64,000 nt of DNA from Alphaproteobacteria bacterium (GTDB lineage Bacteria; Pseudomonadota; Alphaproteobacteria; SP197), in contig OZ219747.1 of assembly GCA_964291265.2 (NCBI GenBank), forward strand, positions 1,824,001-1,888,000, written 5' to 3'. Below are positions 3,384-57,262 of the stretch, in pieces. The stretch's first letter is position 1. Each line of letters begins with the position of its first letter. Below the pieces are notes generated by a model. It was not told the origin of the DNA. It did no database searches and was given only the letters and a program-made list of their open reading frames with translations. The position numbers and the translations under genes are program-made.

Positions 3384-3505
3384 GTCAGCGTTCGGTCACG
3401 GTGCAGCGAGGCATCTGGAACCGAGAGAATACGGGCGAGACCCGGGACATGTGCGCGGTTGCCATCGTCATCCTCATCATCGTCACCCTGTGAGCGAACG
3501 CTTGC
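3384..3505. mobile_element. IS66-related MITE copy 1
   Basis: Ends GTCAGCGTTCGGTCACG ... GTGAGCGAACGCTTGC; interior aligns with the copy at 49317. Confidence 0.75.
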
Positions 3506-22461: not shown

Positions 22462-22585
22462 GTAAGCGTTCGATCAAGGGGTGACGAAGGTAAGGATGAC
22501 AGTGACAACTGCGCACTGCTCCGGAACTCGCCTGCATGCGCTCGGTGCTGTCATCGTCCCAATCACCGCGTGACCGAACGCTTAC
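22462..22585. mobile_element. IS66-related MITE copy 2
   Basis: GTAAGCGTTCGATCA ... ATCACCGCGTGACCGAACGCTTAC; right end nearly identical to the IS66 right end at 55810. Confidence 0.85.
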
Positions 22586-25271: not shown

Positions 25272-25347
25272 GGCGGAGTAGCTCAGTTGGTAGAGCAGGG
25301 GAATCATAATCCCTGGGTCGGGGGTTCAAGTCCCTCCTCCGCTACCA
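25272..25347 (+). tRNA. tRNA-Met (CAT), elongator type
   Basis: GGCGGAGTAGCTCAGTTGG...AATCATAAT...GGTTCAAGTCC...CTCCGCTACCA; full cloverleaf with encoded CCA. Confidence 0.95.
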
Positions 25348-49316: not shown

Positions 49317-49443
49317 GTCAGCGTTCGGTCACGATGCAGCGATCGAGGCATCATGGAACTGAGCGAATGCGGGTGAGACCCGGGATATGTGCGCAGTTGC
49401 CACCGTCACCCTCATTATCGTCACCCCTTGACCGAACGCCTAC
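49317..49443. mobile_element. IS66-related MITE copy 4 with 8-bp TSD
   Basis: GTCAGCGTTCGGTCA ... TGACCGAACGCCTAC flanked by GTTGTCCA / ATTGTCCA. Confidence 0.85.
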
Positions 49444-51800: not shown

Positions 51801-53025
51801 GCACTTGAAAGCGCCGTTTCGCCTCAATGGAGAAGATCGCCGGCGGGACCTCTCCGAGACGATCGTCCCACGCTCGGACCGGCAACACGACGCGCGCGGA
51901 TGCGCACGTCACTGTGCCTTCTACGGCCGAACTCCCTCATCGTCTGTCATCACCGACAAGAGACGACGCCTGGCCCATGTCACGCACAGGCAATCCTGCG
52001 CGGCACGGCGCGCCAGTCAGGCACCGCGGGCTCGCACCACCATTTGCACTTGCCTATCCAAGTTGCTTGTATCACGGACATGGCATAGGGTACGTTTGCG
52101 GGCGTTGGCTCACCTGGCCACGCGATGGGATGGATTATCGGGTGCTGCTTGGGCGAAAGGACTCTCCTTAAGGGAGAACCACAAAAGGCTCGCGGCAATC
52201 GCAGACAAGGTATAGAAAGGTTCAAGGGTTGGCGTGACTACGGCGGAACTCAGGCGCCGGGCAACGAACGGTGCCCAAGGGGGAGCTTGTACGGCGACAG
52301 ATCAAGGATAAGATCGTGGCAGGAGACGTACTGGTGAAAAGCAGTCTCGAATGGATGGAAATGACGTACGAAGCGGAGTTCCTGCACCCGCTGTTCGATT
52401 TGCCAAGCCACAACATAGAGCTTCTGAAGTCATTTTACCAATCCATCCATCCTCAATTCCCGCTTCGAACGACAGACTTGCATGTATTCGGCGGGAGCGC
52501 ACTTTCAGACGTTTGCGTGCGCGTGGCGATGCTTGGAGGTCATGGGACTATCGAGATGACAGCAGAAAGACTGTCGATACGTATCAACGGCATAACAGAC
52601 GAACAGGAACTCGCCACCTGCAACAGGTGCATCATGCTGGCGACTCAGGCATTGAAGGGAACTCTCCCGGATGTCGTGACCAAGACTGTCGCGGCTCGAA
52701 CCACACGATCGCTCAGCCTGGGCGACGGATCCATGACGGCGAGCGACTTCCTGCAGCAAACAGTAACACCGGGTATCGACATGAAGTTGACTGATCTCGG
52801 CAATGCAGTGCAGTCACCTTGCGTGAACATTGAAGTCCAGAACAACGATGAAGACTGGCGGGCAGTCCTGCACGCACACACCAATGCCATTGAGAGGTCG
52901 TCAGTTATCGTTTCATGTTGGACAGCCGTAAGCGTTCGGCCGTTCGGTGATGGCTGATTTTGGTTGGTTTGGGTCTTGCTGACTATCGTCTGAGAAAGAG
53001 CTGGTAAACTCGTTTGGTCTCGATT

Positions 53026-55470
53026 ATGGTCGAGGCCATGAAGACTTTTGCCGAGACGCGCGGAGCGACACAGCAGCTGACGGGAGGTGGTGACGGCCTA
53101 TGTCGGGCGTCAGTGGCCTTGTCATGCGAGGCGCCTGACTGGCGTGCGCTCTATGAGGCGGAGCGGGTTCGTGCGGATGCGGCGGAAGCGCGTATGCGGT
53201 GTGCCAGGCGAACTGGCGGAAGGTAGGGGGTGAAAGTCCCCTGGAACGAAGGAGTAACCAAACCACGTTTCTCCGCGAGCCGTGCGTCGGTTCCCGCGAG
53301 GGGGCAGGCGAAGCGTCGGTAGCGGTACGGATGGGCAGGGCTAATGAGCACCGAAAAAGCTATCATCCGGGGTGCCGAGGCTTTCGCATTGGTCGAAGGC
53401 AACATCGCAGGCATCGATTTGGTGAGATGTCGGCGAGCCCCGCGGTGTCAGAGAACCCATGCACGTCCGCACGCCTTCTGTTGGGACCCTGGGAGATCTT
53501 CAAACCGTCCCGCCGGTTGTGGCGGGACCGCATGGGGAAGGAGAAAACCGAAGCCTATGATGTACGGTTTGAAGAAGTCGGATGAGGCCGTAGTACCTGT
53601 GAAGGCGGCGAACAAGGAAGCGTTAGCTTCTGCGGAGTCGCTGGAGGAAAGGGCCTCAACCAAGGGGAATCCGGGACGCTAAAGCACGCACCGAACGCAG
53701 TGTCGGGCAAGCGTGCCACAGGCGGCGGATCGGATACGGGAAGCCGCAGGCTAGTCCAGTGGTTTGCCGTCCAGTACCCGAGGTAGGAGCCGGATGGATT
53801 AACGTCCACGTCCGGATCTGCGCGGGGGGTGCGCAGCAATGCGCATCCCTACCGCGTCTGACCTGCGCCGTGCGAAGAATTCTGCCCGTGCCCGTGCGGG
53901 CACATTCAAGTTTCATCTCGACCGCACTCGTGATCAGCTCAAGGAGGCTCGCCGGGAGGTGAAGCGTGGACAGGCCCGAGCGGAGGCGCTGGAGCAGGAA
54001 AGGGACGCTCTGAAGCTCAAGAACGCTGAACAGGCGAGCGAGCTGAGGAATCTCCGCGGGACGCGTGCCAAGCACGCGACGGCGCGCTTCGGGTCGAAGA
54101 GCGAGAAACGGAAGAAGAAGGAAGGCACCGGGAACAAGCGGGGTCAGCAACCCGGCAAGAGCGGCCACGGGCGCACTCCGCGTCCGAAGCTCAAGGAGAA
54201 GCACGAACGCCATGATCCACCGGCATCGCAGCGCACGTGCCCGTGTTGCGGCGAGCCCTATGTGGCCAACGGCAGCCACGAGACCTCGATCATGGAGGTC
54301 CATGTCAAGGCTCATGTCCGGCGGATTGAGCGTGGGCGTTGGCGCCGTGGTTGTCAGTGTTCGTCGGCGCCTGCGGAGATCATCGCGCCGCCACCTTTGC
54401 GCTTGCTTGCGAATACCCCCTTCGGCATCAGTGTCTGGGCATGCGTGCTCTATGAGCGCTTCGCCTGCTTGCGTCCCCTGCGCCGGGTCTCGCGATGGCT
54501 GGAAGACCAGGGACTGCCGATGGCGCCGGGAACGATCGCTGGCGGCATGAAGAAGATGACGCCGATGTTCGCGCCTCTCGCTCAGGCCATCCTCGATCAT
54601 CAGAACCGGCTGACGGTGCGCCACGGCGACGAGACCAGCTGGCGCATCCAGTCCCTCAAGGCCTCGGGGCGCTCGCAGAAGGCCTGGCTGTGGACCGCGG
54701 TCAGCGCCGACTCCGTCTTCTTCCTTATCGACCCGTCACGCAGCACCCGGGTGGCCATGGTGCTGTTCGCCTCCACCGAAGGCACCGTCTTCCTTGTCTG
54801 CGATCGCTACGCGGTCTACAGGAAACTGGAGCGTGAGCTTGATGGCAAGGTGATCCTCTGCCTTTGCTGGGCGCACTCCAGGCGCGATGTGATCGAGGCT
54901 GCGGCAGGCCAAGAGGGGCTGGAAGAGTGGTGCGACAAGTGGCTCGACAGGATCGCGCTGATCTACACACTGAATGGGCAACGGCTGAAGCACTACGATC
55001 CCGCACGCAAGCGTCAGTCAGCGAGGTTCAATGCCCTGCAGAAGGACCTTCGTGCGGCTGTCGAGGCGCTGTTCAGGCAGGCTCAGGAGGAACTCGACGC
55101 CTTGCCCGAGGGTGCACGCGAAGCGAAGCCCTTGCGTTCCCTGATCCGTCACCGCGAGGGACTGTGCGTCTTTGTCGACCATCCCCAGGTGCCCATGGAC
55201 AACAACCTGGCCGAGAGAACCCTCCGGGGTGCGGTGACCGCGAGAAAGCTGAGCTTCGGCTCCGACAGCGAGGAAGGCGCCGCCTTCACCGCCATCATGT
55301 ACTCGGTCATCGGCACCCTTGCCATGAACAACATCAATGTTCGGCGCTGGCTTCATGAGTGGCTTGAGGCCTGCGCGCAGAACGGCGGCAAGCCGCCGGA
55401 TGACCTCGACCCGTGGCTGCCATGGTCGATGCCCCCGGAGCGTCGAAGGGACCTCATGGAACCGGGGTGA
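53026..55470 (+). CDS. tnpC: IS66 transposase TnpC interrupted by a group II intron (exons 53026-53198, 53859-55470)
   Basis: FGSKSEK, GQQPGKSGHGR, CPCCG zinc finger, HGDETSW, CDRYAVY, CWAHSRR, DNNLAERTLR; spliced junction reads ARMR-DLRR in frame. Confidence 0.88.
53199..53858 (+). ncRNA. ORF-less group II intron, 660 nt
   Basis: 5' GTGTGCC...GGGGTGAAAGTCCCCT; AAGTCGGATGAGGCCGTAGTACCTGTGAAG; DV GAGCCGGATG...CACGTCCGGATCTGCGCGGGGG; DVI ...CCCTACCGCGTC with bulged A. Confidence 0.9.
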
Positions 55471-55740
55471 TCGAGTGCCGTTACGACGGCCGTGACTTCA
55501 CCGCGCACGAGATGGCGCTGTTGCGCTCCCTGATCACCCAGCACCCCACCCGTGCGGCCATCGCCCGCGCCTTCTGCCGCGAGACCGGCTGATACAAGCC
55601 CGACGGGGCCTCAAGAACATGATGGCGAATGTCGCCTTTCTGGCCATGCACCGCGACGGCCTCATCACCCTGCCGCCACCCCAACGACGAGCAACCCGAC
55701 CCGGACCCATCGTCTTCGGACCCAACAGCGAACCGCCACG
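55467..55740 (+). pseudogene. DUF4338-like N-terminal remnant carried inside the IS66
   Basis: RYDGRDFTAHEMALLRSLI...FCRETG*YKPDG(shift)LKNMMANVAFLAMHRDGLITLPPP. Confidence 0.6.
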
Positions 55741-55943
55741 TGGTGCGCCTCCCAAACGCATCCTCAACCGGTGAATATCACCAACAATCACCGCGTGGCC
55801 GAACGCTTACGGACAGCCTGCCAAGGTGACTCGGAAGAGTCTCTGTACGGGAACTGCATCCGTCTCCAACGGCAACTTCTCGAAGCCCTGCACCGGGGGC
55901 TGAACATCGAGATGAAGTCCACTTTCGCGGTCTCGACGCCGTC

Positions 55944-56633
55944 ATGAACCCCGGTGATGTCAGGAGGGTACAGGTAGGGAGGGAGTTGTCGACCGTCCAG
56001 CACGGTGGCTTTGGGTCAGAAACCGGACATACACGGACAAGGATCGACGCAGTCGATGAACTGCAACTACGAGGCAGACAGTCGGATCAGGCCACGGGTA
56101 TCATCAGACAACGGCAATCAAGTCAGGGCGCGGGTTTCGGCAACTTGCCGTCAGGGGTAGTGTCAGGGGCGTTTCCAGGCATGATGGAGCCGTTGCATTC
56201 TGGCAACCTCCATCAGGAGGCCCGTGTCGGCAGCATCATCAAGGAGAGAGCCGAAACAGAAACTTTACCATACCAGACGCGTCTGTCGGGACCTGTTCAA
56301 TTTCTCAAGAAACTCCTGGGCACATGGTCGCTGGACTTGACGAATGCGCCTGTCCTGCTCGGAATGGATCCGGATGACGGATTATTCGCGGAAAACCTGT
56401 TGAACGGTCGAGTCCCTCTCAGGGGGCGTGACGCCAAGGATCGCATTGTACACCTGTACCGGATTCGCAAGATCTTGTCAGCACTGTTTCGTGATGAACA
56501 AGTCGAGAATGAGTGGCTTCGAGAGCCGCACGAGATGCTGAACGAGCGCTCGCCTATGGACCTGATGTTGGATGGGTCGATGGAAAATCTCCTTCTGGTG
56601 AAGGAGTATGTCGAAGCAGCAGCAGGGCGTTGA
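55944..56633 (+). CDS. Xre/MbcA/ParS-type antitoxin with long N-terminal extension
   Basis: C-terminal LSALFRDEQVENEWLREPHEMLNERSPMDLMLDGSMENLLLVKEYV. Confidence 0.8.
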   Translation: MNPGDVRRVQVGRELSTVQHGGFGSETGHTRTRIDAVDELQLRGRQSDQATGIIRQRQSSQGAGFGNLPSGVVSGAFPGMMEPLHSGNLHQEARVGSIIKERAETETLPYQTRLSGPVQFLKKLLGTWSLDLTNAPVLLGMDPDDGLFAENLLNGRVPLRGRDAKDRIVHLYRIRKILSALFRDEQVENEWLREPHEMLNERSPMDLMLDGSMENLLLVKEYVEAAAGR

Positions 56634-56635
56634 GT

Positions 56636-57262
56636 ATGCTGGACCAGATTGCCAGTCGATACTGCAGGGAGGTTCTCGTTCGATTTGCAAGCCACCGAAC
56701 TGATGAGGATTTTCTGGGCGACCAGGACATGACAGCGGAACAGATTGCTGAGATGAAGGAATTGCTGATGTCTCGCGGCGTGAACGAATCCCTCGAGGAA
56801 CTTGTTGATACACCATTCAAACCGAAACGTCAGCTTTATAAGTCTGGTTATGCCGAAACGCGTTTTTCCGACGGGACCTTTCCGGTCGGGTATTTCGCCA
56901 TGGAGCCAGAGACGGCGGAAGCAGAAGTTCGCTACTGGTTTTGCAAGAATTTTTTTGGCAGGCCAAGTGATAAGCGAAGGGCGTGGTACTCGCGATTTAC
57001 ATGTGACTTTGCAGGCCATGCAAAGGACTTGCGCCCCATGCAAGCTGCATGGCCTGACCTGATGAACAGAACCGACTATGCGTTTTGCAGGCGGTTGGGA
57101 ACGCAGGCCATGTCCGAGGGCCTGGATGCACTGCTGACCCCATCGGTCCGCAAGTCGAGCGGAACCAATGTACCGGTATTCGTCAGGCGGGCACTCAAGC
57201 GATCCTCGCGAACATTCATTGGTCGAGATCCGGTGCGATCAGACATGCGACACGGGAGATGA
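56636..57262 (+). CDS. RES-domain toxin (MbcT/ParT-like)
   Basis: TRFSDGTFPVGYFAMEPETAEAE, DYAFCRRLG, LLTPSVR...GTNVPVF. Confidence 0.85.
   Translation: MLDQIASRYCREVLVRFASHRTDEDFLGDQDMTAEQIAEMKELLMSRGVNESLEELVDTPFKPKRQLYKSGYAETRFSDGTFPVGYFAMEPETAEAEVRYWFCKNFFGRPSDKRRAWYSRFTCDFAGHAKDLRPMQAAWPDLMNRTDYAFCRRLGTQAMSEGLDALLTPSVRKSSGTNVPVFVRRALKRSSRTFIGRDPVRSDMRHGR

Follow-up and report, generated by a model that had tools for sequence, protein, structure and literature searches.

What does a group II intron mean for an insertion sequence (IS) whose transposase gene it interrupts? This question is raised by a 64,000-nt stretch of an alphaproteobacterial genome (GCA_964291265.2, contig OZ219747.1, positions 1,824,001 to 1,888,000; "the window" denotes this whole stretch), in which the transposase gene of an IS66 element at 52928-55810 carries a 660-nt group II intron lacking an open reading frame (ORF), termed here the mini-intron. 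A previous interpretation drawn from the letters of this DNA, referred to below as the sequence-only reading, had proposed that full-length transposase, and with it the movement of the IS and of related miniature inverted-repeat transposable elements (MITEs), depends on splicing assisted by a maturase in trans. Our analysis shifts the emphasis, as the main story missed in that proposal is that the mini-intron is itself a mobile element, a parasite damping the IS and not a gate on which the IS family depends. We consider it probable that the mini-intron is structurally intact, has recently spread and retrohomes with the reverse transcriptase (RT)/maturase of a closely similar sister intron acting in trans; its splicing is predicted.

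An ORF-less group II intron in the transposase gene

The mini-intron, its exon-binding and intron-binding sites (EBS, IBS) and the two transposase exons are located as follows (window coordinates).

53199-53858, plus strand: ORF-less group II intron, IIB-type with E/F-like features, 660 nt
53194-53198, plus strand: IBS1, ATGCG
53385-53389, plus strand: EBS1, CGCAT
53184-53189, plus strand: candidate IBS2, GGAAGC, common to all mini-intron targets; best register of a weakly discriminating scan
53359-53364, plus strand: candidate EBS2, GCTATC, within a 10-nt stretch in which 7 bases differ from the RT-encoding sister
53450, plus strand: EBS3, A (G in the sister), pairing with IBS3, T at 53859
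53257-53262, plus strand: alpha, ACCAAA; its complement alpha-prime, TTTGGT, lies in a terminal loop (53418-53423)
53684-53716, plus strand: domain IV hairpin, kept in the mini-intron and containing the former start codon of the RT; presumably the DIVa maturase-binding site
53713-53786, plus strand: stubs of the RT ORF and deletion junction (about 53750), folding as a capped stem
53787-53818, plus strand: domain V, with AGC triad and AC bulge
53821-53856, plus strand: domain VI, with bulged branch A at 53851; it includes an in-frame ATG (53839) as well as a G-run, and base pairing is predicted for both
53026-53198, plus strand: transposase exon 1, 57 codons plus 2 nt
53859-55470, plus strand: transposase exon 2, with zinc-finger cysteines and the DDE motifs HGDETSW, VCDRY and AERTLR (PF03050, NF033517)

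The intron boundaries are fixed by the empty junction found in intron-free IS copies and by empty alleles in contigs of public runs, those of runs X1, X2 and X5 skipping exactly 53199-53858; the runs are of unrecorded type, and we take the 660-nt skips as DNA alleles and not as splicing. By motif count, the empty target site ATGCG/TGACC (slash, insertion point) occurs 12 times in the genome, always in other copies of the same IS. The exon junction given by the sequence-only reading is confirmed by these sites and skips. Its remaining coordinates and the placement of the intron in the sense strand also hold. Exact excision yields one 594-aa ORF that runs from ATG 53026 without a stop; if the intron is left in place, a stop at 53226 closes the frame, 66 aa in.

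The intron begins with GTGTG at 53199, in agreement with the GUGYG consensus, and its fold has a z-score of -5.05. Rfam model RF02005 (group II domains 1-4) matches 53233-53457 with 170 bits, compared to a cut-off of 49. Rfam matches, folds and covariation converge on a six-domain fold with the domain V triad and the bulged A of domain VI; covariation is seen in 48 of 149 pairs across 10 distinct intron sequences, and all 155 of 155 consensus pairs are retained in the mini-intron. EBS1 is complementary to the exon end at five of five positions, as had been noted, and this pairing covaries across 10 insertions. EBS3 and IBS3 form Watson-Crick pairs of three types in 10 of 10 insertions checked in this and related genomes. 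The position of alpha-prime in a terminal loop and a ribozyme size between 450 and 700 nt are class E/F traits; the domain V loop is predicted to comprise 4 nt (5 nt in class E/F). Judged from ribozyme traits, the first two of these features would point to class E/F. The alpha and alpha-prime labels rest partly on the group II descriptions in the cited part of PMC3753933.

As also proposed previously, the intron-encoded protein (IEP) has been deleted with stubs left behind: in an alignment with the sister's 443-aa RT, the two stubs (53713-53754 and 53760-53786) match its opening and closing codons, about 1.26 kb being deleted between them.

Mini-intron copies and the order of arrival

The genome (two contigs; C2 designates a contig of the genome) contains copies of the IS with and without the mini-intron, and 15 mini-intron copies, all sharing one deletion junction. 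Fourteen of these lie in one IS family and one in an ABC-ATPase gene; an additional 3' fragment is found in a broken duplicate locus. Thirteen copies are complete and 100% identical, another is 100% identical and cut by an IS110-family element, and the last has a 5-nt deletion. The IS copies carrying these near-identical introns are up to 81 substitutions apart and vary even at positions -6 and -8 of the exon when their introns are identical, and the closest relative of the window IS copy (4 substitutions) does not carry the mini-intron. This last observation and the strand pattern described below indicate that the IS would mostly have jumped first, with the mini-intron arriving afterwards.

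Assemblies can homogenise long identical repeats, and the identity of the copies might accordingly be an assembly or polishing artefact. We regard this as extremely improbable, since the IS sequence around the intron varies from copy to copy, the deletion junction is spanned without any difference by a contig of run X1 (which may be the source sample), and an artefact would show no replichore pattern.

The ABC-transporter ATPase gene that carries a mini-intron, sense and in frame, at C2:2219838-2220497 has only the target motif in common with the IS, and an empty allele of it, with an exact 660-nt skip, is present in an 8.4-kb contig of run X3. The mini-intron splits this oligopeptide-type ATPase in frame near its C-terminus; no intron-free copy of the gene was found in the genome, and the full-length product would therefore depend on splicing. 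Separately, a duplicate of the ABC-ATPase locus (C2:2242635-2248969) contains a chimeric broken intron with other EBS sequences.

The genome thus displays the traits of mobile ORF-less introns of the TeI3 type, namely a shared single ORF deletion with stubs (15 copies), a related intact IEP in the same genome (16 intact ORFs) and precise insertion at EBS-matched sites (two target genes, empty alleles). Among 60 other genomes, 13 match the intron DNA, the best matches being full-length introns with other targets; across the deletion junction, no match was found in the 5 genomes re-searched. Two side observations concern the wider intron family. Single decayed introns with other EBS sequences lie at about C2:1375030, 1430298, 2242635 and 3954247, traces of earlier retargeting. 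In addition, contigs of runs X3 and X5 (at 53199-53856) join an AC intron end to an intron start, corresponding to tandem introns or circles of AC-ending relatives.

An RT-encoding sister intron as the likely helper

The cognate maturase in trans postulated by the sequence-only reading has a strong candidate. A sister intron of 1919 nt, 94% identical to the mini-intron outside the deletion and present in 11 complete copies, encodes a 443-aa RT with a YADD motif (TIGR04416 above cut-off), for which 16 intact ORFs exist. Its Pfam matches comprise only the RT and maturase domains, with no endonuclease match, and the 16 long RVT_1 matches of the genome all belong to this RT family. The sister inserts in antisense orientation into the same IS, 784 bases beyond the site of the mini-intron.

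Within the first 552 alignment columns, 9 of the 33 differences between the two introns fall in EBS2 (7), next to EBS1 (1) or in EBS3 (1), and 12 differences located at paired positions break no pair. From these letters, the EBS changes would give the mini-intron a target of its own, shared by the IS66 transposase gene and one ABC-ATPase gene. Direct derivation of the mini-intron from the resident RT intron by deletion was considered and rejected: at columns 306, 311, 366, 403 and 517 the resident intron departs from the letter that the mini-intron shares with most relatives, and the two are for this reason regarded as sisters.

The points that speak against an intact and assisted intron have to be set beside this evidence. 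The 3' end at 53858 reads GTC and departs from the canonical AY, as observed before; the mini-intron ends in TC and all relatives checked end in AC, the penultimate base being T for A. RF00029 (domains V-VI) gives 33.6 bits (E 1e-4), whereas its cut-off lies at 40. The EBS1 pairing is limited to 5 bp, position six being mismatched. The candidate EBS2-IBS2 interaction forms 5 of 6 pairs in the same register at all three mini-intron target alleles, with similar scores on the non-cognate targets of the sister. Finally, the proposed action of the sister's RT on mini-intron RNA is argued from the similarity of the two introns and the lack of another intact RT. As for the 3' end, the final nucleotide of a group II intron takes part in the gamma-gamma-prime contact; the last C of the mini-intron is kept, so that this contact can form with the G of the J2/3 GGA.

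These points bear on whether the mini-intron, no longer spliced or mobile, was spread passively by homologous recombination or gene conversion. Mosaic-looking IS haplotypes, copies without matching duplications and the off-consensus 3' end would fit such a history. It is nevertheless very unlikely in view of the precise insertion into the non-homologous ABC gene with an empty allele elsewhere, the strand bias common to the mini-intron and its RT-bearing sister, the variation of exon bases 6-8 nt from the junction among identical introns, and the integrity of all consensus pairs. Trans-assisted homing of a structurally intact mini-intron would account for these observations.

Two further families touch the sister intron. 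It is also found in sense orientation, at C2:1918148-1920066, within a gene that matches DruA (PF14236) and is present in multiple copies, three of them empty; this DruA-type gene is a likely source of sense transcript for the RT intron. An IS110-family element of 1966 bp (NF033542 above cut-off) is present in four identical copies (C2:2668819-2670784, C2:2594641, 3032860 and 2593459), three of them inserted between nucleotides 7 and 8 of introns (one mini-intron, two RT-bearing introns) and one in an IS66 gene, all at GCC/AGGCG. It appears to be an RNA-guided element targeting the 5' ends of group II introns, adding a further layer of nesting.

Distribution of the two introns with respect to the replication fork

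The occupancy of both intron sites could be read in 27 IS copies, of which 13 carry only the mini-intron, 10 only the sister, one both and three neither. Cumulative GC skew is lowest at 0.72 Mb and peaks at 3.29 Mb, and the origin is placed near dnaA at 0.65 Mb. With fragments included, 14 of 16 mini-introns and 18 of 19 sister introns run with the fork, compared to 15 of 27 for the IS itself. The mini-intron occupies 12 of the 15 fork-oriented IS copies versus 2 of the 12 opposite ones (Fisher p 0.002), and the sister shows the converse distribution (1/15 versus 10/12, p 8e-5). This contrast was stable over 12 placements of origin and terminus (p <=0.006).

Following our reasoning, running with the fork is the outcome expected of insertion into the lagging-strand template, which is the template preferred by the endonuclease-less intron RmInt1 in the cited sections of PMC1802570 and PMC5894124. 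Transposition of IS and intron as a composite would not produce this bias, because such jumps would give random orientation.

These data suggest the following scheme. The mini-intron would be transcribed within the transposase mRNA, excised with the borrowed maturase of its sister and, as for endonuclease-less introns, reverse-spliced into the single-stranded lagging-strand template at the fork. An IS copy running with the fork would expose the site of the mini-intron and one running against it that of the sister; the near mutual exclusion of the two introns would follow, since IS orientation decides which site is exposed. Copies with the mini-intron would yield full-length transposase only after splicing, probably with low efficiency, copies with the antisense sister would be beyond repair by splicing, and two intron-free copies would act as unconditional sources. 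Carried to its full extent, the scheme has two sister introns dividing one IS family by replication strand (24 of 27 copies): the antisense RT intron would knock out copies facing one way and the sense mini-intron make the others RT-dependent, closing a feedback loop in which the IS would offer the introns a promoter and places to land, while much of the transposase output still left would be set by the amount of RT. We put this extended version forward tentatively and regard it as rather doubtful.

Several observations detract from the strand partition. Collapsing the cluster at 2.66-2.75 Mb to one copy weakens the contrast (10/12, p 0.04); two mini-intron copies and one sister copy lie against the fork; and one IS copy sits at the skew maximum, so that its class depends on the terminus chosen. 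Moreover, the IS copies are not fully independent, some being 0-2 substitutions apart with mosaic-looking haplotypes, and the p-values are accordingly overstated.

Consequences for the transposase and the MITEs

For the copy in the window, the dependence of full-length transposase on splicing stands, as it does copy by copy. It does not extend to the IS family. Of the three intron-free IS copies, one is 5'-truncated and broken but two are complete (C2:927480-929703 and C2:184069-181806), with 594-aa ORFs, both ends and 8-bp duplications, and the genome therefore contains intact intron-free sources of transposase.

An obligatory gate, whereby transposition of the IS and the MITEs would require maturase-assisted splicing and IS and intron would jump as a unit, could draw on the eight mini-intron-only copies that have both ends and would yield an intact 594-aa ORF after excision; set against two intact intron-free copies, spliced mRNA could make up a real share. 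It could also draw on mini-intron-bearing copies that are only 0-2 substitutions apart and on the two copies lying against the fork, which could be composite jumps. The two intact copies with target duplications are difficult to reconcile with it, as is the orientation of 12 of 14 mini-intron-bearing IS copies with the fork when the IS overall shows no such preference. RmInt1 in its own IS ligates exons at 0.07% only, according to the cited part of PMC3035460.

The MITEs are likewise at odds with such a gate. About 124 bp long and sharing their ends with the window IS, they number 39 full-length copies in the genome, 9 of which have a target duplication (<=1 mismatch); the 10 compared are 67-89% identical. 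Because they are only this similar to one another, they would predate the spread of the mini-intron, having spread long before its identical copies arose. We consider an obligatory gate highly improbable, and the three-tier dependency of intron, IS and MITE advanced by the sequence-only reading, together with its claim that IS and MITE mobility depends on splicing, is not sustained. Splicing of a damping, parasitic mini-intron may instead matter in amount for the transposase supply, given eight conditional copies versus two unconditional ones.

In the window, the MITEs are distributed as follows.

3384-3505: MITE
22462-22585: MITE
49317-49443: MITE
25057: one MITE end

Other IS66 families were considered as drivers of the MITEs and rejected: where a duplication was detected, their ends differ (GTAACT). 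GTAACT ends also mark a second IS66 family, 2456 bp long, which is abundant and is found nested in copies of the first (C2:106020-type; for example C2:763542-765997), and a related 577-aa ORF was seen at C2:956024.

A further possibility is that interrupted copies make a working, N-terminally shorter transposase from the in-frame ATG 53839, which would leave the intron nearly neutral for the IS. The resulting 543-aa ORF passes NF033517 and retains both the DDE and the zinc-finger motifs, the ATG is preceded by a G-run at a distance of 9 nt, and homologues differ greatly in the length of their N-terminal coiled-coil region. In the predicted domain VI, however, the G-run and most of the ATG are paired (unpaired probability <=0.07, the A excepted), and the same ATG occurs in domain VI of the sister, marking it as inherited ribozyme sequence. 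Residues of exon 1 are also conserved: the stretch PDW..YE.ER.RADAAEAR is kept in intron-free homologous transposases of other genomes, and because these share it, exon 1 is part of the real transposase protein. Internal initiation is hence unlikely; it concerns only what the intron does to the IS and would not conflict with homing of the mini-intron.

The IS66 element and its surroundings

The IS itself is delimited by the following features.

52928-55810: IS66 element, with 14-bp perfect terminal inverted repeats and 8-bp target duplication
52920-52927, no strand: left target duplication, 8 bp, GGACAGCC; empty site in runs X2 and X3
52928-52941, plus strand: left terminal inverted repeat, 14 bp, perfect
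55797-55810, minus strand: right terminal inverted repeat
55811-55818, no strand: right copy of the target duplication
55467-55592, plus strand: truncated short second ORF within the IS, without Pfam match

Its long ORF is an IS66 transposase of the DDE type (Pfam PF03050; NF033517 above cut-off), and ends beginning with GTAA together with an 8-bp target duplication fit what we take to be the IS66 family rule. The classical tnpA and tnpB layout is absent, the 2223-bp intron-free element having one long ORF and a 41-aa remnant; a single-ORF subgroup of IS66 exists. In line with the perfect ends and duplication from which a recent insertion had been proposed, the insertion is recent or polymorphic, since contigs of runs X2 and X3 carry the empty site. 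A weak scan found no sigma-70-like promoter at 52800-53900.

The IS splits a 261-aa ORF without Pfam match in its 5' part (52271-52957 and 55811-55947), directly upstream of an Xre/MbcA-RES toxin-antitoxin-like pair (55944-57262). Elsewhere in the window, a tRNA gene is located at 25272-25344.

Relation to known systems

The individual ingredients of this case are all published, and it is a variant of known systems and not a new one. The comparisons below follow the cited passages of the respective papers. Group II introns in the transposase genes of IS elements, IS66 among them, were described before, as was the proposal that such introns hold the IS in check (PMC4238363, PMC4615759). ORF-less introns are described as uncommon and as accompanied in nearly all cases by a related IEP (PMC4424553).

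The closest working parallel is provided by the ORF-less TeI3 introns of Thermosynechococcus elongatus (Mohr, Ghanem and Lambowitz 2010, PMC2882425; also PMC8643678). Similar to the mini-intron, these combine a clean single ORF deletion with both stubs, proliferation, inner introns that are identical although their hosts have diverged, a shift to new targets through EBS divergence and insertion into other mobile elements (PMC2882425). For TeI3, mobilisation in trans by the IEP of a related intron is reported (PMC2882425), the step that we infer here. The TeI introns differ in belonging to IIB1, in IEPs with an endonuclease and in homing, for many of them, into sister introns (PMC2882425), whereas the present case would combine a 443-aa helper RT without endonuclease match, fork-following homing, and a mini-intron and helper on opposite strands of one IS.

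RmInt1 in ISRm2011-2 of Sinorhizobium meliloti is likewise endonuclease-less, resides in an IS transposase gene and prefers the lagging-strand template (PMC3035460, PMC1802570, PMC5894124); its delta-ORF forms work with the IEP in trans, and damping of IS spread has been proposed (these three sources and PMC4238363). In contrast to the natural delta-ORF sister with its own target described here, RmInt1 is autonomous, of class D and hosted by an IS630-family element, and its delta-ORF form is engineered. Sr.md.I1 is also a group II intron in an IS66 transposase gene (PMC4615759, PMC5894124) but encodes its own RT. RmInt2 lies in both inverted repeats of ISRm17, which offers a target on either replication strand of one IS (PMC5894124); it involves one intron with its own RT and a repeated site, here replaced by two sisters with different EBS sequences and two internal sites. 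Finally, the mini-intron resembles groups IIE and IIF (Nagy et al. 2013, PMC3753933) in recognising exons in a IIB-like manner, in placing alpha-prime at the end of a stem-loop and in measuring 450-700 nt when the ORF is left out. In the main texts of the open-licence literature, our searches returned no case in which one IS is shared out by strand between two sister introns.

Overall, this locus constitutes a natural experiment on how an endonuclease-less RT may mobilise a natural delta-ORF intron in trans, on target switching by a small number of EBS bases and on fork-dependent homing, three points that have so far been known mainly from engineered constructs. The compact 660-nt ribozyme and its helper RT form a ready pair for the little-characterised E/F-like introns. 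Moreover, with IS copies silenced for good, conditionally or not at all, the two-by-two pattern within one nearly closed chromosome makes the restraint of insertion sequences by introns directly testable.

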